NCBI GenBank assembly: GCA_964398115.1
Contig: CAYNLP010000002.1
Location: 36,724 to 81,003 of the forward strand
DNA from: an uncultured Methanosarcinales archaeon
Lineage (GTDB): Archaea > Nanobdellota > Nanobdellia > Woesearchaeales > CAYNLP01
Direction: 5' to 3'
Length of the DNA stretch: 44,280 nucleotides
Shown: positions 11,385 to 41,085 of the stretch, one piece after another
How positions within the stretch are numbered: position 1 is the first letter of the stretch
Layout of the letters: each line of letters opens with the position of its first letter
Translations under genes and position numbers: made by a program
Notes under the pieces: generated by a model
What the model was told of the DNA's origin: nothing
The model's database searches: none
The model's input: the letters and a program-made list of their open reading frames with translations, nothing else

Positions 11385-11939
11385 ATGGGGCTTGAAGAAG
11401 TAAAACAAGGACTCAAAGAAGAACTAGAAGAACGCAGAGAAATAATTCTAGAAGAAGCCAGACGGCGAAAAGAAGAACTAGAGAAAGAAGCAAAGCAAGA
11501 AATAGAGACTTACAGAGAGAAAAAGGAGAAAGACGCAGAAAACTTGATTAAAAATCTGGAGCGAAGCGAGCTTGCAACCACAAAATTACAAAGCAAGAAG
11601 AAAAGACTTAGCGTGAAGAAAGACGCCATTGATAACTCTTTCCGACAAGTAATGGACAAGCTCGTTTCGAAAAAACCCAAACAGAGAGAAGAAATAATCG
11701 AAGCGTTGATAGAAAAAGCAGAAGATGAAATAGACGTTGGAAAGATTTTCTGTGCAAGTAAAGACAAAAAACTCATCGAAAACTACGAGGTAGAAACCAG
11801 CGACGACATAGAAGGCGGGATTGTTTGTGAAAGTAAAGATGGACAATCCAGAGTAGACTATACTATTGAGTCCTTGCTTGTAGAGATCAGAGAAGAAACT
11901 TTGAAGGAGGTTGAAGAAAAACTCTTCCAAAATGACTGA
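11385..11939 (+). CDS. atpE: A/V-type ATP synthase subunit E
   Basis: MGLEEV coiled coil, GGIV..S.DG..RVDYT, and operon position. Confidence 0.93.
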   Translation: MGLEEVKQGLKEELEERREIILEEARRRKEELEKEAKQEIETYREKKEKDAENLIKNLERSELATTKLQSKKKRLSVKKDAIDNSFRQVMDKLVSKKPKQREEIIEALIEKAEDEIDVGKIFCASKDKKLIENYEVETSDDIEGGIVCESKDGQSRVDYTIESLLVEIREETLKEVEEKLFQND

Positions 11940-12969
11940 ACTACAAGTCAAGTTCAATCCTTACGCCTTTGTAAGGACAAACGTGATGCGGAGCAACCTC
12001 TTACAAGAAAAAGATTACGAGAGAATGATGAAGATGACAGTATCAGAAATAACGAAAACTCTTCAAAACCTACACTACAAAGAAGACATCGATGCATTAG
12101 GAGGAGCGTACACAACCACCGAACTGATAGAAAAAGCACTAAGTCGGAATAGAGATAGAAGTTTCCAAAAACTCCGCAGGATTTGTCAAGGAGATGATGA
12201 CCTAATTGAATTAGTAGATGCGTACCTAGAAAGATATGATTTGTTCAATATCAAAACCGTTTTGCGGGCGATAAAAACAGGACAAAAAGATGAAGCGACT
12301 GATTTACTTTCTAATGCAGGGATTAATGATAAAGAATTCTATCAGGAAACGTTACGTCTCAATTCTATTGAAGAAGCTATTCAAAAATTAAGTACGACTA
12401 AGTTCGTCAATTTAAGCATGCGAGATAAAAGCTTACAAGAAATTGAAAACTTACTTGAAAAGAGCTACTATCAAGAATTACTCGATATGGCGAATAACAT
12501 TCCAAAACAAGTAAACCTGTTCAAAGAGTTCATATTAAATGAAATAGACGTGGTCAATATTTTAACCTTGTTAAGGTTAAAGAAAGAAAACGTTTCCAAT
12601 GAAAAAATCCGAGAGCTGCTGATAATTCCTGAAAGGGATGTGGGCAGGTACTTTTTGGAGAAAGTTATTAACAACGACAGTGTAGAGAACATTTTAGAAC
12701 AATTGAAAGACAGCGACTATGGTGAAATGATAGAAAAAGCGATGGAAAGATATGAAGAAACTCAAAGCTTAATGCCTATCGAGAAAGAACTCAAACGAGC
12801 CTTGCTTGAAAAAAGTGTTTTGATGCTTCATAAAGATATACTTTCCCCTAGCGTCATCTTGGGCTACATGTTTGCAAAAGATGTAGAGATAAGAAATCTT
12901 CGGATAATTATAAAGGGTAAAAAATTCGACTTGGATGAAGAATTTATCAAGAAGGAGTTGGTGTTTTAA
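11932..12969 (+). CDS. atpC: A/V-type ATP synthase subunit C (d)
   Basis: YAFVR..VMRS.LL, NIKTVLR, EID..N and EIRNLRIIIKGK. ATG at 11932. Confidence 0.93.
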   Translation: MTELQVKFNPYAFVRTNVMRSNLLQEKDYERMMKMTVSEITKTLQNLHYKEDIDALGGAYTTTELIEKALSRNRDRSFQKLRRICQGDDDLIELVDAYLERYDLFNIKTVLRAIKTGQKDEATDLLSNAGINDKEFYQETLRLNSIEEAIQKLSTTKFVNLSMRDKSLQEIENLLEKSYYQELLDMANNIPKQVNLFKEFILNEIDVVNILTLLRLKKENVSNEKIRELLIIPERDVGRYFLEKVINNDSVENILEQLKDSDYGEMIEKAMERYEETQSLMPIEKELKRALLEKSVLMLHKDILSPSVILGYMFAKDVEIRNLRIIIKGKKFDLDEEFIKKELVF

Positions 12970-13271
12970 TGACTGAAATAGCAGTAGCAGGAACAGAAGA
13001 GTTCATGCTCGGATTTAAACTAGCCGGTATCAGACACATGTTCAACACTGAAGAAAACCCGAAAGAAACTTTGGAAGAAGCTATGAATATTGAAGAGGTT
13101 GGAGTAGTAGTTGTAGATCAAGAAACACTTGATAAATTACCAGAACATTTTCAAGAAGAAATCATGTCATCAGTCAATCCAGTTATTTTACCTCTTTCAG
13201 AAGAAACAGATAATTCAAGATTACGAGACAAAATTACAAGTGCAATAGGAGTAGACTTAATGGATAGGTGA
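12969..13271 (+). CDS. atpF: A/V-type ATP synthase subunit F
   Basis: IAVAG...GFKLAGI...AIGVDL. Confidence 0.95.
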
Positions 13272-13276
13272 TAATA

Positions 13277-15018
13277 ATGTCAAAAGGAACACTTAAGAGA
13301 ATTGCAGGACCAGTAGTTGTCGCCAAAGATCTAGAAGCAAAAATGTACGACGTTGTATACGTAGGAAAAGAACAACTCATGGGTGAAGTCATCGAAATTG
13401 AAGATGATGAAATAACCATACAAGTTTATGAAGGAACTAGTGGCATTCAACCAGGAGAACCTGTAGAAAACACTGGAGAACCACTTACTGTAACGCTAGG
13501 ACCAGGACTGCTCAAAAGCATATATGATGGGGTTCAAAGACCGCTACCAGAATTAGAGGAGCAACAAGGAACCTTTATCAGCAGAGGAGCAAGAGCTCCA
13601 GGTATAGACTTAGAAAAAGAATGGGAGTTTGAACCCTTGATAGAGGAAAGTGACGAAGTTCAACCTGGCGACGTGGTTGGAGAAGTACAAGAAACAGAAA
13701 ATAATATACACAAAGTTATGGTGCCACCCGACTATGAAGGTGGAGAAGTATCCAATGTTAAAAAAGGAGAGTACACCGTGGAAGAAAGCGTTGTAGAATT
13801 AGACAACGGAGAAGAAATAAAGATGAAACAAGAATGGCCGGTGAGAGAAGCAAGACCTGTAGAAGAAAAACTCTCTCCTAACATTCCACTCATTACAGGA
13901 CAACGAGTGTTTGACGCGTTGTTCCCACTAACCAAAGGAGGAGCAGCAGCGATTCCCGGGCCGTTTGGAGCTGGTAAGACAGTCGCTCAACAACAACTGG
14001 CTAAATGGTGCGACGCAGACATAATAATCTACGTTGGATGTGGAGAACGTGGGAACGAAATGACAGAAGTGTTAGAAGAATTCCCAGAATTAGAAGATCC
14101 TCGAACCGGAGCACCCTTAATGAATCGAACTGTACTCATAGCAAACACTTCAAACATGCCGGTTGCAGCAAGAGAAGCAAGCATATATACAGGTATCACG
14201 ATAGCAGAATACTACAGAGATATGGGATACGACGTAGCAATGATGGCAGACAGTACCAGTAGATGGGCGGAAGCGATGAGAGAAATCTCGAGCCGGCTGG
14301 AAGAAATGCCGGGAGAAGAAGGATACCCAGCATACCTAGCCACTAGATTGGCAGAGTTTTATGAAAGAGCCGGAAGAGTCACACCCCTCGGTGTCGACGA
14401 TCCTGGAAGCGCGACAGTTATCGGAGCTGTAAGTCCGCCCGGAGGAGACTTTTCAGAACCAGTAACGCAAAACACTCTTAGAGTTACAAAAGTTTTCTGG
14501 GCATTAGACAGCGACCTTTCAAAGAAGAGACACTTTCCAGCAATAAACTGGCTAGACTCATATAGCTTGTATCAGGATGAGATTAAAGGATGGTACGCGG
14601 AAGAAGTTGGAGAAGACTGGGGTGAATGCATCAGTCGAATTAACAAGTTACTGCAGGAAGAAGACGAATTAATGGAAATAGTACAACTCGTTGGAAGCGA
14701 CGCATTGCCAGAAAACCAACAAGTCTTGCTAGAAGCAGCACGGTTAGTTAGAGAAGATTTCTTACAGCAAAACGCTTTCCATGACGTCGAAACATATTGT
14801 GAATTGGACAAAACATACATGTTGATGAAGACAATACTTCTCTACTATGACTTGGCTCAAGACGCGTTAGAACGAGGAGTGAGGATAGAAGACATACTCG
14901 GAGTAGATGCGAAGAACAAAATAGGGAAAGCTAAGTTTGAAGAAGACTACGAAAAGTTATTGGAGGAAACACAAGAAGAAATCAAACAAGAATTTGAAGA
15001 ACTCACAGGTGATATAGA

Positions 15019-15022
<4 letters not shown>
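13277..15022 (+). CDS. atpA: A/V-type ATP synthase catalytic subunit A (no intein)
   Basis: [27 protein letters not shown] and [10 protein letters not shown]. Confidence 0.98.
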
Positions 15023-16518
<1,496 letters not shown>

Positions 16519-16522
16519 ACAG

Positions 16523-17149
16523 ATGGAAGATGTTAAACCCACAAGGACTGAATTGTTGAACTTGAAGGAAAAGATAGAACTAGCTAAAAACGGTCATAAA
16601 CTTTTGAAGAAGAAACGGGACGGTTTGATAATGGAATTCTTTGAAGTTTTGAAAGAAGCAAAGAGTTTACGAGAAGAACTTACTGAATCTTTCAAAAACG
16701 CACAGGAGAAAATGAATATAGCCAGAACGTTAGAAGGAGATTTGAAGATTAACAGCTTGGCTATGGCGATTAGTGAAAAGCCAGAATTTGAAATGGCTGA
16801 GAAAAACATCGTTGGAGTCGTCGTTCCAAAGGTGGAAGATGCGAAGAGTTTGAGAAAACAAATGTTTGAAAGAGGACACGGTTATTTCAACAGCGCGGCT
16901 ATTGACGAAGTAGCAACTGCTTATGAAGAACTAGTTGAAAAAATTATCAAAGCAGCCGAAGTTGAAACTACTATCCGGAAATTACTAGAAGAGATTGAAA
17001 AGACCAAGCGTCGTGTTAACGCTTTAGAATTTGAAGTCGTGCCCAGGATGGAAGACCAAGCTGAATACATACAAATGCGTTTAGATGAACAAGAAAGAGA
17101 AAACTTTTCTAGACTTAAGCTTATCAAGAACCGTATGGAAGAAGATTAG
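16523..17149 (+). CDS. atpD: A/V-type ATP synthase subunit D
   Basis: KPTR.EL...GHKLLKKKRDGL and EIEKTKRRVNALE. Confidence 0.97.
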   Translation: MEDVKPTRTELLNLKEKIELAKNGHKLLKKKRDGLIMEFFEVLKEAKSLREELTESFKNAQEKMNIARTLEGDLKINSLAMAISEKPEFEMAEKNIVGVVVPKVEDAKSLRKQMFERGHGYFNSAAIDEVATAYEELVEKIIKAAEVETTIRKLLEEIEKTKRRVNALEFEVVPRMEDQAEYIQMRLDEQERENFSRLKLIKNRMEED

Positions 17150-19426: not shown

Positions 19427-19888
19427 ATGGAGAAGAGAAAACTTTTCTTGTTTTTAGTACTTGTGCTGTCAGTTATTGGAATGGCTGATAGCATTCACTT
19501 GTTGGAGATTAAGTATGGTGGTCACGAGTTTATAGCGTGTGATATTAATGAGAAATTTAGTTGTTCTACTGTTAATATGAGTCCTCAGAGTGAATTTTTC
19601 GGCTTTCCTACGGCAGGGATAGGATTAATCGGTTATAGTGTGTTGGCTATGATGAGTTTTTTCTTACTACGAAAAAAGGATTGGAGGGATAAGTTCTTTC
19701 ATGAGAAGCTTTTCAATTTAGTTACTCCTTTCACTCTTTTGATAGTTGCAGCTATAGGTTTGATAATGCAGTTATATTATACTTATGTCGAGTTTTTTGT
19801 GTTAGAGCAATTCTGTATTTTTTGTTTATTCAGCCAAGCCTTGATAATAGGGATTGCAGTTTTTGCTTATGTCAACTTTTCTAAGTGA
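19427..19888 (+). CDS. vitamin K epoxide reductase (VKOR) family protein
   Basis: Loop Cys pair CDINEKFSC..V..S, FG.P, active-site CIFC, and 4 TM helices. Confidence 0.9.
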   Translation: MEKRKLFLFLVLVLSVIGMADSIHLLEIKYGGHEFIACDINEKFSCSTVNMSPQSEFFGFPTAGIGLIGYSVLAMMSFFLLRKKDWRDKFFHEKLFNLVTPFTLLIVAAIGLIMQLYYTYVEFFVLEQFCIFCLFSQALIIGIAVFAYVNFSK

Positions 19889-20511: not shown

Positions 20512-21873
20512 CTATTGTTTTTTGAGTTCTGTCATTACTTCTGCAAGTGTTGGGTGGACGTGGACTGTTTTTGTCAAAGCACCTATTTTAGCGTTTGTCG
20601 TGAGCAATGCGGCTATTTCGTGTATGAGGTTTGGAGCGTCTGCTCCTATAATCGTTGCTCCTAATATCTTTTTAGTTTCTTTGTCGTAGATTACTTTTGC
20701 AAACCCTTCTTCTTTTCCGATTATTTTTGCTTTTCCTGTTTTTGAAAATTTTCCTTTCATAATTTCTATGTCGTGTTCTTTTTTTGCTTGTTGTTCGTTC
20801 ATCCCTACCCCGCCTATTGGTGGGAAAGTGAAAACCGCCCATGGGATTTTATCATGTTCTAAAGTACGGTTTTTTCCTAGCAATGAATTTTCGAGGGCTA
20901 TCCTGCTTTCCCTTTTTGCTGTGTGTGCGAATGGTGATTTTCCGTTTACGTCTCCCACGGCGTATATGTTTGGATTGGCGCTTTGTAGTTTTTCATCCAC
21001 GACTATGTGTCCTTTTTCTGTTTCTACTTTGGCTTTTTCTAGATTTAAGTGTTCTGTGTTTGGTCTTCTCCCAGTTGATACGAACAGGCTTTCTCCAGTG
21101 TATTTCTTCACAGGTTCTTCTTCATCTACAGGTGTAGTTTTGAGTTCTACCCTGTCATGGTTTTCTCCACTTACTTGTTTGATGTCGACGTTGGTATATA
21201 TTTCTACATTTTTTTCTTCTAATTTTTCATGTATTAATTGGGATACGTCTTCGTCTAACATTCCTAAAATTCTAGGTTGTCTTTCTAGTATGGTTACTTT
21301 GGCTCCTAGTGTTGCGAAGAAACTTGCGAATTCACAGCTTATGTATCCTCCGCCGATCATAACTATACTTTCGGGTAGTTCATCTAATTTTAAAGCTTCA
21401 ACGTTCGTCATGTAACCAGTTTCTTCTAATCCTTCAATTGGAGGTGTCCACGGACTGCTTCCTGTAGCTATTATTATTTTGTCGGCAGTTATTTCTTCAT
21501 CTCCAACTTTTACAGTGTCTTTAGATACAAATTTTGCTTTCTCATTATAGTGAGTTATGTTATCTATTTTTTCTACGCTTTCTTCTGCGTGTGTTCTTCC
21601 GGTCGTGACGATTTTTCTCATACGGTTCATTATTTCTAAGAAGTCAAAGTCTACATTTTTAGTTTGGATGCCGTATTCTTCACTTGCTTGCATTTCTTGG
21701 TATAGTTCTGCGCTGTGTAGAAGTGTCTTGGTGGGTATACAGCCTGTGTTTAGACAGGTTCCTCCCATCGCTGCAGGTTCTATAAGTGCTGTGTCGAATC
21801 CGCTTTTTGCGGCTATTATAGAAGCTCTTAAACCTGCAGTCCCACCTCCTATTATCATGACATCATATGCCAT
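20512..21873 (-). CDS. class I pyridine nucleotide-disulfide oxidoreductase (dihydrolipoamide dehydrogenase/mycothione reductase-like)
   Basis: GGGTAG FAD motif, GGTCLNTGCIPTK redox disulfide, GGGYI..E, IYAVGD and the HPTLAE His-Glu dyad. No C-terminal Cys pair. Confidence 0.92.
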   Translation of the reverse strand: MAYDVMIIGGGTAGLRASIIAAKSGFDTALIEPAAMGGTCLNTGCIPTKTLLHSAELYQEMQASEEYGIQTKNVDFDFLEIMNRMRKIVTTGRTHAEESVEKIDNITHYNEKAKFVSKDTVKVGDEEITADKIIIATGSSPWTPPIEGLEETGYMTNVEALKLDELPESIVMIGGGYISCEFASFFATLGAKVTILERQPRILGMLDEDVSQLIHEKLEEKNVEIYTNVDIKQVSGENHDRVELKTTPVDEEEPVKKYTGESLFVSTGRRPNTEHLNLEKAKVETEKGHIVVDEKLQSANPNIYAVGDVNGKSPFAHTAKRESRIALENSLLGKNRTLEHDKIPWAVFTFPPIGGVGMNEQQAKKEHDIEIMKGKFSKTGKAKIIGKEEGFAKVIYDKETKKILGATIIGADAPNLIHEIAALLTTNAKIGALTKTVHVHPTLAEVMTELKKQ

Positions 21874-21900
21874 TCTAATGTTTTAGAGTTATAGCAAACC

Positions 21901-21929
21901 TTTATATATCTTAGTAACCAAGTTGTTAC
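21901..21929. promoter_or_regulatory. probable bidirectional TATA (21901-21908) plus inverted repeat GTAAC-N6-GTTAC (21914-21929)
   Basis: Reads TTTATATA on + and TATATAAA on -. It lies 27 nt from the reductase ATG and just upstream of the small-ORF SD. Confidence 0.55.
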
Positions 21930-21944
21930 AAAAGGTGATTACTA

Positions 21945-22046
21945 GTGCAATTATTTAAAGACAAGGATGAAGAAGAGCAGGAAGAAGAAGCTGAAGAGAA
22001 GAAAGAATTGGAAGATGCAGGCGATGAAGGCTGTGAATTCTGTTAA
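21945..22046 (+). CDS. 33-aa acidic microprotein with C-terminal CxxC (MQLFKDKDEEEQEEEAEEKKELEDAGDEGCEFC)
   Basis: Below the ORF-track cutoff. AGGTGA SD at 21933-21938, GTG 6 nt later, TATA upstream. The stop overlaps the convergent NUDIX stop (TTAA), as at 971-974. Confidence 0.75.
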   Translation: MQLFKDKDEEEQEEEAEEKKELEDAGDEGCEFC

Positions 22047-22426
22047 TTTTCTATATATTTTTTGACAGCTTCGTCATCCCTGGAAGTGATTGGATATTTT
22101 TGTAATTCTTCTGGACTTAGCCAATGATGTGTAGCGTGTTCTTTGTTTAGTTTGATCTTTCCTGTAAAGTCTGCTTTGTAATAGTGTTGCAGAAATCTTG
22201 TCCCTTCTCTGTTGTTGCTTAGATAGAAGAGGAATTCAGTATTTTGTATTTCGAGATTTGTTTCTTCTTTAACTTCTCTTTCGAGAGCAGATTTTGCTTC
22301 TTCAGTTTCTTTTCTTTTCCCGCCAGGTAAGGTGAGTTTATTGGGATAGTCTAGATTTTGATTTCTTTCTAGAAATAGTACTTTGTTGTTTCTTTCAAGT
22401 ATAGCTCTTACTACTTGTTCTACCAT
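22043..22426 (-). CDS. NUDIX hydrolase
   Basis: LPGGK...E....ALEREVKEETNL Nudix box. Confidence 0.92.
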   Translation of the reverse strand: MVEQVVRAILERNNKVLFLERNQNLDYPNKLTLPGGKRKETEEAKSALEREVKEETNLEIQNTEFLFYLSNNREGTRFLQHYYKADFTGKIKLNKEHATHHWLSPEELQKYPITSRDDEAVKKYIEN

Positions 22427-22462: not shown

Positions 22463-22732
22463 TTAGCAGATGTCCATGATGTCGTCGTACATCATGGCTA
22501 TGTCTTCGTCGAATTCTTCTAAGGTGTCGATGATGTGTTTTCTTAGTTCTTGGCTGGTTACTTCGTGTCGGTCTTCCATGAAGTTGTTCATGTATTCGAG
22601 TACGGTGCTAGCTATTTCTTCGCTGACTTCTTCTCCGTAGTGGCAGTTTAGACAGGCGGCGTATACGCTGGCGTAGAGTTTTCTTGGCTCGTATTCTTCC
22701 GTGTGTCCTTTTCTTTTGACGACGTGTTTCAT
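22463..22732 (-). CDS. stand-alone ATP-cone domain protein
   Basis: VVKRKGHTEEY...KL..S and VTSQELR..I...L. Confidence 0.8.
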   Translation of the reverse strand: MKHVVKRKGHTEEYEPRKLYASVYAACLNCHYGEEVSEEIASTVLEYMNNFMEDRHEVTSQELRKHIIDTLEEFDEDIAMMYDDIMDIC

Positions 22733-22733
22733 T

Positions 22734-23441
22734 TTAGTTTATGTTTATTACTCCGCTGGCGATTAGCATTAATAACCATCCAAGTCCTATAAGTAGTAAT
22801 CCTGTGAAGTATCGCATATAAGCTTTGCTGCCTTGCTTCCATTTCTTCACATTTTGTACTTTTACTCCGAGCATAGTTAGTATGAGGATTATTACGAGTG
22901 GCATTACGAATATTATGTTGTATGCGATTAATAGGAGGATTGCTTGGAAGTTGAAGTTTTGACTTAATAAAAGGGTTATTGCTAGGTATGGGCCTCCTGT
23001 GCATGGGAGTTCGACGCTGCTTACGAATACGCCGAGAAAGATGACTGTTCCGATTGATAGGTCTTGCATTTTTTCTTTAATCTTTTCGGCATATTTTTCT
23101 GGTATCATCAGGCTGAATCCTTTGCCGTACCAGAAGAAGTCTTTCATTTCGAATAAGCCTGCGGCTACTACTAGGATTCCTACGGCTATGCTGATGTATT
23201 CGCTTACTATTAGGGGGATGTTTGCCATGAATGTGGTTAGTCCTAGGCCGAAGGCGAGGTAGGTTAGGAATACTGCTGTGATGTAGATCATGCCGATTTT
23301 GAGCATGTCTTTCTTTTTCTTAGCTACGAGGAGGGTTGAGATTAAGAGTATTAATACTCCTATCGCGCATGGGTTGATGGAGTCTACTGCTGCGGTGGTT
23401 AGTACTGCCACGACTGTGGGCATTGCTACATCTACTGCCAC
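22734..23441 (-). CDS. CcdA/DsbD-like transmembrane electron transporter (cytochrome c biogenesis family)
   Basis: DSINPCA and ELPCTGGPY pseudo-symmetric Pro-Cys pair, ~6 TM helices. Confidence 0.82.
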   Translation of the reverse strand: MAVDVAMPTVVAVLTTAAVDSINPCAIGVLILLISTLLVAKKKKDMLKIGMIYITAVFLTYLAFGLGLTTFMANIPLIVSEYISIAVGILVVAAGLFEMKDFFWYGKGFSLMIPEKYAEKIKEKMQDLSIGTVIFLGVFVSSVELPCTGGPYLAITLLLSQNFNFQAILLLIAYNIIFVMPLVIILILTMLGVKVQNVKKWKQGSKAYMRYFTGLLLIGLGWLLMLIASGVININ

Positions 23442-24235
23442 TCTCTACCAGCCTCCGAGGTGTCTTCTCTTTTTTCTTCCCAGTTGTTGTAATTCCAATC
23501 TTGTGTTTCCCAGCTGCTGCATAGCTTATTCGTGGTTTGTGAGTTATTCGGTCCGAATTCTACTATTATGCAGTCTCCGGGTGGTACGTAGGGGTCGGGA
23601 TAAGGTAGGTAGTGGGTGTAGTTTTGTATTCTTTCTCCGTTGACGTATACTTTGAGTTGTCCTGTTTGTCCGTTTGGACAGGTGTCTCCGTTTTGATAAT
23701 TGTATGTTTGGTTTTGTCCGGGATAGATTAAGTGTCCTTTTTCGAGTTTTCCTCCTATAACTTCGAAGTAGTCTCCTAATTCTACGTCTTTGACTTCCAT
23801 GACTGTTCCTTCTACGTGGATTCGATCGTCGTCATGTTCGTGGAATAGAGGTGTTCCTATCTTATTGCTGAGTCCTTGTGGGTTTTTTAGGTCTATTCTT
23901 TCACCGCAGGCCCATATTTGGTAGTCGGCGTGCCAATGTACTGGTCCTTTGGTTTCGCTGACTATGTTTTCGTGTATTATAGCACCGGCGAAGTATAGGC
24001 TTGAGAGGGAGGTTACTAGTATGAGCATTATAAAGATTAGTTTTTTGCCTTGTTCTGTAAGTCGATCTTTTAATGGGATTATTGCGAAAGAGCCTAGGAT
24101 GAGTATTATCCCTGCTATTTTTAGTAGGAGGACACCTGTGTCTACGCTGAAGAAGGGTTTGGTGTTACTTGCTGCAAGTGTTAGTTGAAAGGATAGAACT
24201 ATCGCTGTTAAGTAAGCACTCCACCTCTTTTTCAT
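23432..24235 (-). CDS. membrane-anchored extracellular protein with His cluster (putative metal binding)
   Basis: Signal/TM helices, then HWHAD...FHEHDDDRIHVEG and four Cys. Confidence 0.72.
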   Translation of the reverse strand: MKKRWSAYLTAIVLSFQLTLAASNTKPFFSVDTGVLLLKIAGIILILGSFAIIPLKDRLTEQGKKLIFIMLILVTSLSSLYFAGAIIHENIVSETKGPVHWHADYQIWACGERIDLKNPQGLSNKIGTPLFHEHDDDRIHVEGTVMEVKDVELGDYFEVIGGKLEKGHLIYPGQNQTYNYQNGDTCPNGQTGQLKVYVNGERIQNYTHYLPYPDPYVPPGDCIIVEFGPNNSQTTNKLCSSWETQDWNYNNWEEKREDTSEAGREWQ

Positions 24236-37284: not shown

Positions 37285-40200
37285 ATGACACCACAACAAA
37301 TGAAAAAAGTAATTCAAGAACGACAAGATAAGTACGAAAACATCAAACAAACTAACGGAATTCCAGACAAGATACAAGCAACAGAAAACCAGAGGAAAGT
37401 CATCAAAGACAAATACATCAAAGTAGCAGACAGCCTAGAAGAATGGCTAAGGATCGTATCAAGAAACATCGCCCTGGCAGAACTACTACACCACGACGAA
37501 TTCAAAGACGAAATATTCAAAGGCGTAGACTACGAAGAAAAAACATTCGAATTCGAAAATCACAACCTGCCAGAAAGCACAACCTACTACCTACACGCAG
37601 GCAAAGACGACCACGACGCGATGGAAGACAACTTCGACAAATTCATAGAAAACCTAGAAAGAGTTGCCGACAACAACGAAAAAGCAGGTCGCATCGTAAA
37701 AGAAATGGAAGACTTATTCTACAGCATGATGTCCCAATGGGACTTCCTACCTAACAGTCCAACACTGATGAACGCAGGCAGAGACTTACAACAACTAAGC
37801 GCGTGCTACGTACTCCCAGTAGAAGACAGCGTAGAAGGCTGGGGAGACGCAGTAAAGAACACAATGCTAATCCACAAAAGCGGCGGAGGAACAGGATTCA
37901 GCGGATGCAGAGTCCGACCCAGGGGAAGCATCGTACAAAGCACAAAAGGCGTCGCATCAGGACCTATGAGCGTGTTCAAAATGGTCGACGCAATGACACA
38001 ACAAATTAAACAAGGAGGAATGAGAAGAGGAGCCAACATGGGCATCCTACCATACCACCACCCAGACATTGAAGAATTCGTAAACAGCAAAAAAGACAAC
38101 GACGAACTAGAAAACTTCAACATTTCCGTAGCTATTGACAGCGACTTCATGAAAGCAGTGAAAAACGACGAAGAAATAGAACTAGTCAATCCACACACGG
38201 ACAAAGTAGAAGGACAAATAAGAGCACAAGAACTATGGAACACCATGATAGAAAACGCATGGGCAACAGGAGACCCAGGATTCGTAAACCTAGAAAGAAT
38301 AAACGAAAGCCGAAGCAACCCCACGCCGGAAGTGGGACAAATTGAATCAACCAATCCTTGCGTTACTGGAGACACTTTGATAAGCACGGATGAAGGTCTA
38401 GTAAGCATTGAAGAACTTGCTAACAGGGAAGGAGGATCTAACATATACGTGGATTCCAGAACTGAAACAGTAGAAAGCAATAATTTACTAATGAATCAAT
38501 TAGGGACTAGACTGGTACGGGCCACGAAAGCTTGGAAAACAGGTGTGAAAGACACTTATAAAGTAAAAACCAAGAGTGGATATGAGGTTGAAGCAACCGC
38601 GGACCACAAAGTTTTGACAAAAGAAGGATGGAAAGAAGTCCAAGACTTGACAGAAGACGATAAACTCTTGATACAATCAGATGAAGGAGGATTTCCTGAA
38701 AACGCCGAATTACCAACCAGTTTTAACGGATACACTCAATGGAATAAGAAACTAGGTCAAGTGCTTGGATGGCTAGTTGGTGACGGCTGGCTAAGATCTG
38801 GAGATGAAAACCGAAGAGCTGGTTTCTGTTTCGGCGAAAAAGACACTGATGTTTTCAAAGAACTCAAACCATTCTTGAACAAACTATATGGAAAAGAGAT
38901 AAAAGAAGTTGAAAGAGAGAATGGAACGATACACTTGTCGTATCACTCAAAACCTTTCGTTAACTTCTTCAAAGAACTCGGTGTTAAACCTGTGAAGTCG
39001 AAAGAAAAAGTAATGCCAGAGAGTTTGTTCAGAGCTAGCGAAGATGCAGTTAAAGGATTCCTGCAAGCACTCTTCACTGCTGATGGCACGGTGAGTGCTT
39101 CTGAGAATAAGACACATTATGTTAGGCTTTCCTCCAAGTCTAGACGACTGTTAGAAGGTGTTCAAAAACTGTTGGTCAATCTCGGAATAAAATCCAAGAT
39201 TTACAACAGATCAAGACCGTCTAGAAAAGTTTTCGCTTACGAGAATAAAGACGGAGATTCAGTTGAATACGACTCTGATGGAGTTCTCTACGAACTTCAA
39301 ATAAGTAAAGATCTAATTCCCAAATTCATGGATGAAGTAGGATTCATGTCAGAAAGACACAGTGACAAGATAGAAAAATTAGATAAAGTAAATTACTACA
39401 CCACCCAGTTTGAAGATGAACTGGATTCTGTCACTTACGTTGGAGAAAAACCCGTCTACGATCTCACCGAACCATTAACTCATTCATTCATAGGGAATGG
39501 TTTGGTATTGCACAACTGTGGAGAACAACCTCTGCTACCATACGAACCATGCAACTTGGGAAGCATAAAACTTGCAAACTTCGTCATCGAAGACGAAGAA
39601 AACCCAAGAATTGACTGGGATAGGTTGAGAAACACAGTTCACTTGGCAATTCACTTCTTAGACAACGTTATCGATATCAACAATTATCCACTGCCAGAAA
39701 TTGAAAAGATAGCGAAAGAAAACAGGAGAATCGGCCTTGGAGTGATGGGATGGGCGGAGATGCTGACCAAACTACACATCCCATACAATTCAGACAAGGC
39801 TTACAAACTGGCAGAAGAAGTCATGCAATTCATAAACGAAAACGCACTAGAAGCAAGTGAAAACCTCGCAGCAGAACGAGGAGTATTCCCCAACTGGGAA
39901 GACAGCATCTACGACCCACAAGGAGAAAACTTCGATGATAAAGAAGCTTATCCGAGAAACTGCGCAAGGACGACAATCGCACCAACCGGCACGATCGGAA
40001 TAGCAAGCGGTTGTCAAGGAGCAGGCATCGAACCATACTTCGCAGCCGTCTACACACGATACACGGCAGAAGGAATCGATGCCATAAAGCGAGGTGAAGA
40101 ACCGGATGAGAAACACACATACTACGAAGTTAACAAGGAGCTCAAGAGAGTCGCTGAAAAGAAAGACTACTGGGGAATGGAGCCAGAAGAGCTCTGGGAA

Positions 40201-41085
40201 AAGATTGATGAAAACGACGGAAGCCTAGTAGGCATTGACGAAATCCCAGAAGAAGTACAAGGCTGGTTCCTAACCGCACACGACCTCACACCAGAAGACC
40301 ACGTGAAAGTACAAGCCGCGTTCCAAAGACATGTCGATAATGGCGTGAGCAAAACAGTAAACTTCGATCACGACGCAACTACGGAAGACGTGAAAGAAGT
40401 ATACGAACTCGCATACGAGCTTGGATGTAAAGGAGTCACTATCTACAGAGACGGTAGCAAGGATGAACAAGTCTTGAACAAGAGTGATAGCGAGGAAGAA
40501 AGCGAAGACGCTGAAGAACAAGTCGAAACTGTAGAAGCAGATCAAACTAGCGAATCAAGTGTAAGTCCAGAAGGAGTTGCACCAGCCAAGCAAGCAGCAG
40601 GTCAAGAAGCCAGTGCCTACTACGAACTCGAAACAGGGTACGGACCTGTCCATATCCACATCAACTACGACGCGGAAGGACCGAAGAAAGTGTTTGCTAA
40701 CCTTTCACCTACAGGCACTGAGATTAGCGGTTTGACAACGGCGTGTGGCATCTTGTTGAGCAAGTACTTGGAAGAAGGAGGAGATGCGAAAGATATCCTC
40801 CGACACTTGAACAGCATCAAGGGAGACAAGCCACATGGATTTGGAAAGAACAGGATTGACAGCATCCCGCACGCTATCAGCGTAGCCTTGAAAGACCACT
40901 TGGTAAAGACTGGAAAATTAGAAACTGGACAGACCAAACTAGACTTTGAAGATAAAAAAGTTCAGGACTTTGACGAAGACGGTGATGACCAATACTGTCC
41001 CGAATGCTACAGTCAAAACGTGGCTATGGTCAGCGGATGTGACGAACCAGTCTGCTTCGACTGTGGCTACAGCAAGTGCGGATAA
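37285..41085 (+). CDS. nrdJ: class II (adenosylcobalamin-dependent) ribonucleotide reductase with intein, C-terminal TSCPD-like and Zn-ribbon domains
   Basis: PNSPTLMNAG, LSACYV, GGGTG, RRGANM, TNP|CGEQPL, RRIGLGVMG, TIAPTGT, SKTVN and KGVTIYRDGS. Confidence 0.96.
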   Translation: MTPQQMKKVIQERQDKYENIKQTNGIPDKIQATENQRKVIKDKYIKVADSLEEWLRIVSRNIALAELLHHDEFKDEIFKGVDYEEKTFEFENHNLPESTTYYLHAGKDDHDAMEDNFDKFIENLERVADNNEKAGRIVKEMEDLFYSMMSQWDFLPNSPTLMNAGRDLQQLSACYVLPVEDSVEGWGDAVKNTMLIHKSGGGTGFSGCRVRPRGSIVQSTKGVASGPMSVFKMVDAMTQQIKQGGMRRGANMGILPYHHPDIEEFVNSKKDNDELENFNISVAIDSDFMKAVKNDEEIELVNPHTDKVEGQIRAQELWNTMIENAWATGDPGFVNLERINESRSNPTPEVGQIESTNPCVTGDTLISTDEGLVSIEELANREGGSNIYVDSRTETVESNNLLMNQLGTRLVRATKAWKTGVKDTYKVKTKSGYEVEATADHKVLTKEGWKEVQDLTEDDKLLIQSDEGGFPENAELPTSFNGYTQWNKKLGQVLGWLVGDGWLRSGDENRRAGFCFGEKDTDVFKELKPFLNKLYGKEIKEVERENGTIHLSYHSKPFVNFFKELGVKPVKSKEKVMPESLFRASEDAVKGFLQALFTADGTVSASENKTHYVRLSSKSRRLLEGVQKLLVNLGIKSKIYNRSRPSRKVFAYENKDGDSVEYDSDGVLYELQISKDLIPKFMDEVGFMSERHSDKIEKLDKVNYYTTQFEDELDSVTYVGEKPVYDLTEPLTHSFIGNGLVLHNCGEQPLLPYEPCNLGSIKLANFVIEDEENPRIDWDRLRNTVHLAIHFLDNVIDINNYPLPEIEKIAKENRRIGLGVMGWAEMLTKLHIPYNSDKAYKLAEEVMQFINENALEASENLAAERGVFPNWEDSIYDPQGENFDDKEAYPRNCARTTIAPTGTIGIASGCQGAGIEPYFAAVYTRYTAEGIDAIKRGEEPDEKHTYYEVNKELKRVAEKKDYWGMEPEELWEKIDENDGSLVGIDEIPEEVQGWFLTAHDLTPEDHVKVQAAFQRHVDNGVSKTVNFDHDATTEDVKEVYELAYELGCKGVTIYRDGSKDEQVLNKSDSEEESEDAEEQVETVEADQTSESSVSPEGVAPAKQAAGQEASAYYELETGYGPVHIHINYDAEGPKKVFANLSPTGTEISGLTTACGILLSKYLEEGGDAKDILRHLNSIKGDKPHGFGKNRIDSIPHAISVALKDHLVKTGKLETGQTKLDFEDKKVQDFDEDGDDQYCPECYSQNVAMVSGCDEPVCFDCGYSKCG
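38359..39516 (+). mobile_element. 386-aa intein with LAGLIDADG homing endonuclease in nrdJ
   Basis: Starts CVTGDT; block B ATADH; LGWLVGDG and FLQALFTADG motifs; ends VYDL...HSFIGNGLVLHN followed by extein Cys. Confidence 0.96.

Follow-up and report, generated by a model that had tools for sequence, protein, structure and literature searches.

A conserved microprotein ending in C-x-[F/Y]-C, its flavin disulfide reductase neighbour and a membrane thiol module in one order of DPANN archaea

The stretch of DNA analysed here (44,280 nt, hereafter the window) lies on contig 2 of 67 in a 1.0-Mb, 91% complete assembly (G000) of an uncultured DPANN archaeon, and it raises the question of whether a 33-codon open reading frame (ORF), which starts back to back with the gene of a flavoprotein disulfide reductase and ends in C-E-F-C and a stop codon, is a gene at all and, if so, what a product of that size could do. 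The encoded peptide, MQLFKDKDEEEQEEEAEEKKELEDAGDEGCEFC, carries Asp or Glu at 16 of its 33 positions, as counted from the ORF translation. Comparison of related sequences confirms the ORF as a genuine conserved gene. The best explanation of the pattern of conservation is that the C-terminal C-x-[F/Y]-C is the sole functional part of the peptide, with the rest forming a hydrophilic spacer of any charge. The reading that we prefer, and to which we give an even chance, is that the peptide would be an unfolded cytoplasmic dithiol shuttle, kept reduced by the reductases of one clade and feeding a relay through a CcdA-like membrane protein. The peptide family is known from sequence and synteny, and the coded genomes (G) and loci (L) named below belong to one DPANN order.

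The family comprises 29 microproteins (from 28 genomes plus the window's own) spread over 16 coded families of the order, all of which end in C-[E/P]-[F/Y]-C directly before the stop codon. Their lengths range from 14 to 52 aa and their net charges from -13 to +14, and in an alignment of 27 of them (L094 and L114, with uncertain start codons, were left out) the only invariant columns are the initial Met and the two Cys. ATG is the start codon in 27 of the 29, the stop codon is TAA in 14, TGA in 8 and TAG in 7, and the terminal codons vary synonymously (GGC/GGT/GGA, TGT/TGC, CCT/CCG/CCA, TTC/TTT). The 16 peptide genes that are linked to a reductase, whose loci span a GC content of 0.32-0.56, likewise show synonymous changes in the last five codons, use all three stop codons and begin with ATG in 15 cases. 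It is because the amino acids are kept while third positions and stop codons vary that the ORF can be taken for a real gene. The only other genome of the window's genus, G001, has an ortholog, MGLFMKDEDEEDQEEELADEGDEGCEFC, on the opposite strand and 72 nt upstream of the reductase gene, with a different downstream neighbour; the reductases of the two genomes are about 56-60% identical, the one from G001 being split across two contigs, and the GC content is 0.51 at the G001 locus (L032/L106, contig 7) versus 0.38 in the window.

Signals for expression are weak, being short words in AT-rich DNA: a TATA-like word stands within 70 nt upstream in 22 of the 29 members and a Shine-Dalgarno-like word within 18 nt in 19. 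In the window, TATA-like TTTATATA is found at 21901-21908 and AGGTGA at 21933-21938, both in the short divergent intergenic region, which may act as a promoter. At the other end, the TAA of the peptide gene (22044-22046) overlaps the stop codon of a convergent NUDIX hydrolase gene within the word TTAA. No NUDIX gene was found beside the peptide at the other mapped loci, and it is therefore not a conserved member of the module.

Whether the frame could nevertheless be a product of chance, or a conserved DNA or RNA element of the promoter region, has to be asked of a very short frame in an AT-rich intergenic region that is almost never found in gene calls. The exact window peptide is absent among about 15 billion called proteins; when ten family members were looked up in the same way, seven, the window's own among them, were absent and three present, none with a name, and a profile of 27 peptides run against the protein collection returned a single match (E = 1.7), identical to the L125 peptide. 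A scan of a DNA collection for D-E-G-C-E-F-C-stop gave three matches, all of them bacterial records of metagenome-assembled genomes by title, against approximately four estimated by chance. Within the order, a G-C-P-F-C-stop pattern was matched 20 times in 401 genomes, compared to four times for the reversed control; 13 of the 20 adjoin a reductase gene, one is a genuine unlinked copy (G321) and six are chance, and a further family copy was found in G504, from a phylum-level sample. In the 1.0-Mb genome itself, a terminal CxxC is found in 56 stop-to-stop frames (14 aa or longer), yet the window ORF is unique among them in its D/E/K-rich tail. Most members moreover have an ATG and a Shine-Dalgarno-like word of their own, and the motif stays constant while its position shifts from before the gene of the membrane-anchored protein p267 to after an ATP-cone gene or beside the reductase gene. 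With the synonymous variation across GC contents of 0.32-0.56 added to this, a chance frame or nucleic-acid element is hardly credible.

A second, Lys-rich frame of 32 aa (MKKSRKKKLKRRKNWKMQ...) at 21967-22065 on the plus strand overlaps the peptide gene in a different reading frame; the conserved C-terminal motif and the start belong to the CEFC frame.

The pairing of the peptide with the reductase was followed through a search of the order (401 genomes, E <= 1e-90), which matched 27 genomes. In the 42 loci scored, a peptide gene lies divergently upstream of the reductase gene at 16 of 18 loci of one reductase clade, delimited post hoc once a quick tree had been seen, versus 0 of 24 other DLD-like (dihydrolipoyl dehydrogenase-like) loci, with a start-to-start distance of 58-149 nt in 15 cases and 510 nt in one. 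Grouped by identity, 14 of 16 loci with reductases 40-49% identical have a divergent CPFC ORF, the peptides ending in G/D-C-P-F-C-stop, as opposed to none of nine at 35-39%. The divergent pairing spans nine coded families while the other neighbours change, and although the block of p267, CcdA-like and ATP-cone genes was inverted or moved within the window's genus, the peptide and reductase genes remained together there. Outside the order, the search of the phylum-level sample (351 genomes) gave no matches, and a reductase-seeded search of metagenome contigs gave just three distant relatives of 29-32% identity.

In a maximum-likelihood tree of 54 rows with a midpoint root only, all 16 peptide-linked reductases fall in one group of 25 rows (support 99/95), which further holds two reductases with no visible peptide (G313 and G049) and seven database sequences. 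L005 (internal stop), L015 and L110 (short or distant) and L109 were dropped from the tree, the last as a near-duplicate of L108; both of these reductases have 442 aa and identical printed termini. The canonical DLD group (11 rows, including named bacterial DLDs) is separate, with support 100/99, and under the midpoint root the peptide-linked clade groups with MerA-like and 'DLD family' sequences. The clade is also marked by K320 and R321, conserved at 0.95 and 0.86, positions at which three other groups have different residues; they sit on the helix after the GD motif, a region that presumably corresponds to the one lining the disulfide-substrate site in glutathione reductase (GR). The window's genome encodes two DLD-like enzymes, namely the window reductase and a paralog of the MerA-like group on contig 20.

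The domain composition of the window reductase is that of the GR fold (Pfam Pyr_redox_2, 247 bits; Pyr_redox_dim, 105 bits), and its CLNTGC motif (C40, C45) is invariant, with H440 and E445 at least 90% conserved, in 44 sequences. It passes the DLD/E3 model TIGR01350 with 437.7 bits against a cut-off of 408.8, while clade members elsewhere score 401-417 bits, two of four above the cut-off. It fails the MerA model TIGR02053 (379.3 versus 454.45 bits) and the TGR model TIGR01438 (191.4 versus 475.85 bits) and also remains below the cut-offs of the GR and mycothione reductase models. The nearest solved structures are DLDs, followed by MerA and mycothione reductase. Its last 22 residues (ALTKTVHVHPTLAEVMTELKKQ) contain no Cys, and a C-terminal CxxC occurs in 0 of 120 homologs inspected. 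Three homologs (P0026, P0029 and P0032) bear Lys/Glu-rich N- or C-terminal extensions that have no Cys and whose composition recalls the bodies of the peptides.

A complex of the reductase dimer with the peptide was predicted from custom alignments, as a score only and without an interface. The score is 0.50 (runs 0.49, 0.50 and 0.53), compared to 0.01 for the best of three controls; the runs have at least 94% of their contacts in common, and the pLDDT (predicted local distance difference test) of the partner is at least 56. Of the 80 solved complexes in the benchmark, 58 reach the mark that the prediction passes, as do 2 of the 110 mismatched pairs, and the scores that are past the mark and no higher than 0.60 come from 7 of the 80 solved complexes and from both passing mismatches. 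The prediction thus lends weak support to the pairing.

Up to this point, much of the original prediction, made from the letters of the window, has held. The ORF, with its TATA-like word, AGGTGA, GTG start, TTAA overlap and 71-nt gap, is as it was described and is conserved in relatives. A test set in advance, the search for a conserved CxxC-terminal ORF beside homologous reductases, found one, placed divergently, at the 16 clade loci counted above. The reductase indeed has no Cys pair at its C-terminus, and no lipoyl, E1/E2 or thioredoxin (Trx) gene is present among the 19 ORFs of the window that were scanned with Pfam (out of 72 frames of at least 90 aa). The modelled complex, which it had proposed, stands clear of its controls and is at the same time only a weak pass.

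Table 1. Coordinates, in the window, of the peptide gene, the reductase gene and the neighbouring features discussed in the text
Feature	Position	Strand	Remarks
VKOR-family membrane protein	19427..19888	+	153 aa; Pfam VKOR 93.6 bits
DLD-like flavoprotein disulfide reductase	20512..21873	-	453 aa; GGTCLNTGC, HVHPTLAE
Divergent intergenic region	21874..21944	.	71 nt between the two start codons
Microprotein gene	21945..22046	+	33 aa; GTG start; GCEFC end, then TAA; from the ORF listing
NUDIX hydrolase	22043..22426	-	Pfam NUDIX 60.1 bits; converges on the peptide gene
Stand-alone ATP-cone protein	22463..22732	-	89 aa; Cys end; Pfam ATP-cone 41.1 bits
CcdA/DsbD-superfamily membrane protein	22734..23441	-	235 aa; Pfam SfLAP 40.1 bits, cut-off 35
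p267, membrane-anchored, with His/Cys-rich domain	23432..24235	-	no Pfam family
Class II-type ribonucleotide reductase	37285-41085	+	intein (LAGLIDADG); C-terminal TSCPD domain

The neighbourhood (Table 1) was compared in gene maps, for which about 9 kb on each side of every peptide were fetched and the ORFs clustered (17 loci). In these maps and the extra CcdA-like loci described below, the commoner partners of the peptide are p267, the CcdA-like protein and the ATP-cone protein, rather than the reductase. The commonest order is the reductase gene on the minus strand and, on the plus strand, the genes of the peptide, p267, the CcdA-like protein and the ATP-cone protein (L089, L090, L098, L099, L100 and L101; L103 has the same order without the reductase). 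The p267 gene immediately follows the peptide gene, in the same orientation, at seven mapped loci and at seven further loci found through the CcdA-like gene, and most related clusters have the ATP-cone gene behind the CcdA-like gene. The block of these three genes is inverted or displaced in both the window and G001, and there the VKOR gene lies two genes past the reductase gene. A VKOR gene directly follows the peptide gene in L091, L092 and L102, and a second order, peptide, VKOR, Trx-like lipoprotein, CcdA-like, is seen in L092 and L102 and partially in L091 and L093. The Trx-like lipoprotein-like protein (125-131 aa; L092 8355-8732, minus strand; L093 9749-10144, plus; L102 10943-11329, plus) has an MYG..W/G-C-x-H-C (CPHC) motif and further conserved Cys, and it takes the place of p267 in the cluster. 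At L095 the peptide is followed by the ATP-cone gene, and at L094, L096 and L097 only the reductase and the peptide are found within the fetched span.

The link also holds when the search starts from the membrane protein. Among 20 extra CcdA-like loci, 49-68% identical to the window copy, 11 hold a Lys-rich CE[F/Y]C-stop peptide, for example MAKKSKKAKAKKSKAVKSKKAKVCEFC, MPGTKKPKKKKNVCEFC and MPGKKKAKVMKKSANVCEYC, seven of them immediately before the p267 gene and four immediately behind the ATP-cone gene (one convergent). For three of the nine extra loci without a local peptide, the same genome has a peptide beside a reductase elsewhere, be it on a different contig or farther along the same one. 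The CcdA-like orthologs in peptide loci are 53-80% identical, and the nine closest orthologs of the window protein (66-79% identity) all come from peptide-positive genomes. A connection to the CcdA-like protein, which the original prediction had mentioned as one of two possible outlets, is therefore strongly supported by synteny.

As to the parts themselves, the CcdA-like protein has DSINPCAIGV and VELPCTGGPYLAIT invariant in 12 orthologs, with one Cys each, and both motifs are predicted from hydrophobicity to sit in transmembrane segments. Pfam assigns it to SfLAP only, with no DsbD_TM match, and NCBIfam gives none; in its nearest Atlas clusters, 10-79% of the members have SfLAP, DsbD_TM or DsbD_2, which is a lead only. 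The NPC and LPCTGGP contexts of its Cys are what we take to be a resemblance to CcdA/DsbD. After an N-terminal hydrophobic region, p267 has GPxHWH, HEH and R-x-HVEG motifs and four Cys, all of them invariant; no sequence in the PDB matches it, and its model (pLDDT 76.7) has no fold match at E <= 0.001, its Atlas neighbours being 'hypothetical protein' clusters from DPANN archaea and Saccharimonadota. The ATP-cone orthologs (L089, L090, L095, L101, L103 and L106; 86-115 aa with the window's included) end in [L/M][D/E]x-Cys-stop in six of seven aligned, while an internal CxxC can be dismissed as a conserved feature since the window's CLNC is not kept in the orthologs. The ATP-cone protein is a constant presence in the thiol cluster.

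The position of the peptide gene bears on the suggestion that it may be a cis-acting leader or arrest peptide, which would control translation of the p267-CcdA operon and have no functional product. In 14 loci it does indeed open the operon, about 1-16 nt before the next gene where coordinates were compared, and its conservation is limited to the last residues before the stop codon, as in some arrest peptides. A ribosome stalled at that stop codon would, however, cover a start codon 1-16 nt away. In the window, in G001 and in L094 the peptide gene converges on an unrelated gene and has no downstream gene to control, in four loci it comes after the ATP-cone gene (convergent in one), and in L096 and L097 unrelated genes follow. 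Given the convergent placement in the former three and the post-operon placement in the latter four, we regard a leader function as improbable, if a little less far-fetched than a chance frame.

Turning from the gene to its product, the peptide has no Pfam or NCBIfam match above cut-off, and at 14-52 aa there is no thioredoxin fold around its CxxC. A precursor of a ribosomally synthesized and post-translationally modified peptide was considered and discarded, no recurrent modifying enzyme being found in the 17 locus maps; a single weak radical-SAM match (28.8 bits, below cut-off) occurs in L102 only, approximately 3 kb from the peptide. A metallochaperone of the HMA type was set aside as well, for want of a Pfam match and because the motif is C-terminal and the peptide too short for a ferredoxin-like fold.

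The preferred reading is drawn from three observations, which are that only the Cys pair is conserved, that the membrane neighbours are of a thiol-disulfide kind and that the pairing with the reductase is confined to one clade; each electron-transfer step in it is one that we infer. First, the NAD(P)H-dependent DLD-like flavoprotein would reduce the terminal disulfide of the peptide at its CLNTGC and His-Glu site, the peptide behaving like a lipoyl arm, or like the C-terminal tail of thioredoxin reductase (TrxR) or MerA supplied in trans. The reduced peptide would then hand its electrons to two Cys within the membrane part of the CcdA/DsbD-like protein, and this protein would in turn serve the extracytoplasmic p267 or, in other genomes, VKOR and the Trx-like lipoprotein. 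A bolder version, in which the peptide is a fold-less, gene-encoded low-molecular-weight dithiol that acts as the physiological substrate of a DLD-family enzyme and as the dedicated donor of the CcdA-like protein, in the manner of a lipoamide or glutathione surrogate for genome-reduced archaea, is one that we put forward tentatively and would sooner doubt than accept.

Several observations weigh against a shuttle of this kind. TrxR and thioredoxin are the usual donors of CcdA, and both (TrxR of the low-Mr type, 296-371 bits) are present in five of five peptide-positive genomes tested. CcdA-like proteins were counted in 117 of 371 genomes of the order (E <= 1e-30; five of the 117 rows, G244, G183, G273, G337 and G206, are genomes flagged as unpublished), far above the number of genomes known to bear a peptide. 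At least 12 genomes have a peptide with no adjoining clade reductase (G321 and those of the 11 extra CcdA-like loci), so that the reductase is not an obligatory partner, and conversely the clade reductases of G313 and G049 (assemblies 88% and 76% complete) have neither a nearby peptide nor a GCPFC or GCEFC match. The reductase clears the curated DLD cut-off, and the predicted complex is only a weak pass. G390, G170 and G317 have no DLD-family gene other than the peptide-linked one, despite the presence of a lipoyl protein and a ligase, and in L094 the peptide gene converges on a lipoate ligase gene. Finally, a zinc-finger-like extension in two family members and the His-rich motifs of p267 hint at metals.

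Some of these points fit an arrangement in which the peptide would belong to the membrane module only and would be reduced by the thioredoxin system or by another reductase, with the neighbouring enzyme being an ordinary E3 whose placement would stem from co-regulation or from fixation by chance in a single clade. The TIGR01350 score, the lack of any other DLD-family gene in the three genomes just named, the lipoate ligase gene beside the pair in L094, the peptides without a reductase and the presence of TrxR and thioredoxin all speak in its favour. Since it is the sole DLD-family enzyme in those three genomes, the peptide-linked reductase may in some lineages serve as E3, either in addition or exclusively; G321 and G235 each encode a separate E3 with a higher score. 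Such an arrangement does not, on the other hand, account for a divergent pairing in 16 of 18 clade members and nine coded families while other neighbours change, or for a peptide that stayed with the reductase in the window's genus when the membrane block was inverted or moved. The clade moreover lies outside the canonical E3 group, the complex prediction passes, weakly, with clean controls, and the window's genome keeps the pair with no lipoyl domain, lipoate ligase or GcvH detected at 91% completeness. On balance, we consider an ordinary E3 beside an independent peptide unlikely, though far from negligible.

The main rival to the redox reading is a role in metal handling, in which the terminal CxxC, a classic soft-metal site, would pass Cu(I), Zn, Cd or Hg to or from the membrane protein and p267, in a mer- or cop-like chain built from non-homologous parts. 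Where there is a reductase, its substrate would be the metal or the peptide-metal complex. The invariant HWH, HEH and H-x-E motifs and the four Cys of p267 would suit such a role, as would the appearance of MerA among the near-best NCBIfam and PDB matches of the reductase. Two CE[F/Y]C peptides (L123 1995-2126, plus strand; L126 4083-4199, minus strand) have an N-terminal CxxC-x16-19-C extension with zinc-finger or metallothionein matches, all below the Pfam cut-offs (zf-FCS 17.7, Metallothio_Pro 17.6 and LIM 22.8 bits). The reductase nevertheless misses the MerA cut-off and has no C-terminal Cys pair, and in the alternative clusters p267 is exchanged for VKOR and the CPHC Trx-like lipoprotein, which are thiol-disulfide enzymes rather than metal proteins. 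The Cys contexts of the membrane protein likewise look like those of CcdA/DsbD, the clusters share no conserved metal regulator, P1B-ATPase or HMA domain, and the P-type ATPase found at two loci is of the cation type. Metal handling is therefore given a minor share of the probability, on a par with that of the ordinary E3.

Returning to the dithiol shuttle, the same observations limit how far the original prediction can be followed, and its interpretation as a whole is partly supported. It had described a minimal two-part system, which does not agree with the commoner partners p267, CcdA-like and ATP-cone or with the genomes that have no adjoining clade reductase. It had also suggested a replacement for glutathione or thioredoxin; with TrxR and thioredoxin kept in five of five genomes, replacement of the thioredoxin system was rejected, and the pair is better described as an addition to it. 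The label 'orphan' for the reductase suits the window's genome only, in that a lipoyl protein and a ligase are both encoded in four other peptide-positive genomes (G390, G321, G170 and G317). The class II-type ribonucleotide reductase (NrdJ), proposed as another client, lies approximately 15 kb from the peptide and outside the conserved cluster, and it has a Cys-rich tail of its own, in which an acidic stretch precedes CPEC, CFDC and more Cys; the idea that the peptide is its missing tail was accordingly dropped.

A further observation on the window is that it encodes the A-type ATP synthase subunits A, B and D at 13268-17149 (within 11385-17149, plus strand), which fits its archaeal origin.

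The proposed chain has recognizable relatives among known systems. In high-Mr thioredoxin reductase and in MerA, a GR-fold dimer with an N-terminal CxxxxC uses a flexible C-terminal Cys pair to carry electrons or metal away; the elements are the same here, except that the Cys pair is on a separate product of 14-52 aa and has CxxC spacing. A lipoyl-lysine arm is likewise reduced by dihydrolipoyl dehydrogenase, also in the Lpd-DlaT-AhpD-AhpC peroxidase chain of M. tuberculosis. Both schemes have a flexible arm whose terminal dithiol is reduced by an enzyme of the DLD type and which then reduces a CxxC client; the difference is that two gene-encoded Cys would take the place of lipoate, in a genome with no detected lipoyl domain or ligase in the case of the window. 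In the relay from thioredoxin through CcdA/DsbD to an extracytoplasmic Trx-like protein, the gene of a cytoplasmic CxxC donor is similarly clustered with a two-Cys membrane protein and extracytoplasmic Cys proteins; here, the candidate donor has no fold, the normal thioredoxin and TrxR are also present, and the membrane protein has an SfLAP match only. The active site of glutaredoxin is CP[Y/F]C, so that C-P-F-C is identical to some active sites, but the surrounding fold is missing here, and the motif is C-E-[F/Y]-C in the window's genus and in the Lys-rich group. Small CxxC proteins are also known as metallochaperones (CopZ, MerP) and as TRASH or zf-FCS mini-domains, with which two family members share the zinc-finger-like extension; in contrast to these, the peptide has no ferredoxin-like HMA fold and no above-cut-off Pfam match, and its motif is at the extreme C-terminus.

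A precedent for a misleading database name on an archaeal GR-fold enzyme is the bis-gamma-glutamylcystine reductase of Halobacterium, which was first annotated as MerA while its true substrate is a small Cys disulfide (PMC7278568). That substrate is an enzymatically made dipeptide, unlike the candidate here, which would be made on the ribosome and would form an intramolecular disulfide. Another report describes CPR (candidate phyla radiation) bacteria as enriched in extracytoplasmic thiol-disulfide oxidoreductases encoded next to VKOR (PMC6744442). A peptide of this kind might occur in these bacteria too, as they share the p267 and CcdA-like families. Searches of open-access PubMed Central and bioRxiv text found no account of a redox carrier that is a free microprotein with a CxxC and no fold.

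Whatever its function, the peptide belongs to a conserved gene family that is nearly always missed by standard gene calling. Should the shuttle be true, it would be the smallest thiol-redox carrier known, namely a ribosomally made peptide without a fold, and it would supply a real substrate for widespread 'dihydrolipoyl dehydrogenase' annotations. Episymbiotic DPANN archaea are devoid of most cofactor and low-molecular-weight thiol synthesis, and a carrier of this kind would show how they could power thiol chemistry outside the cytoplasm.

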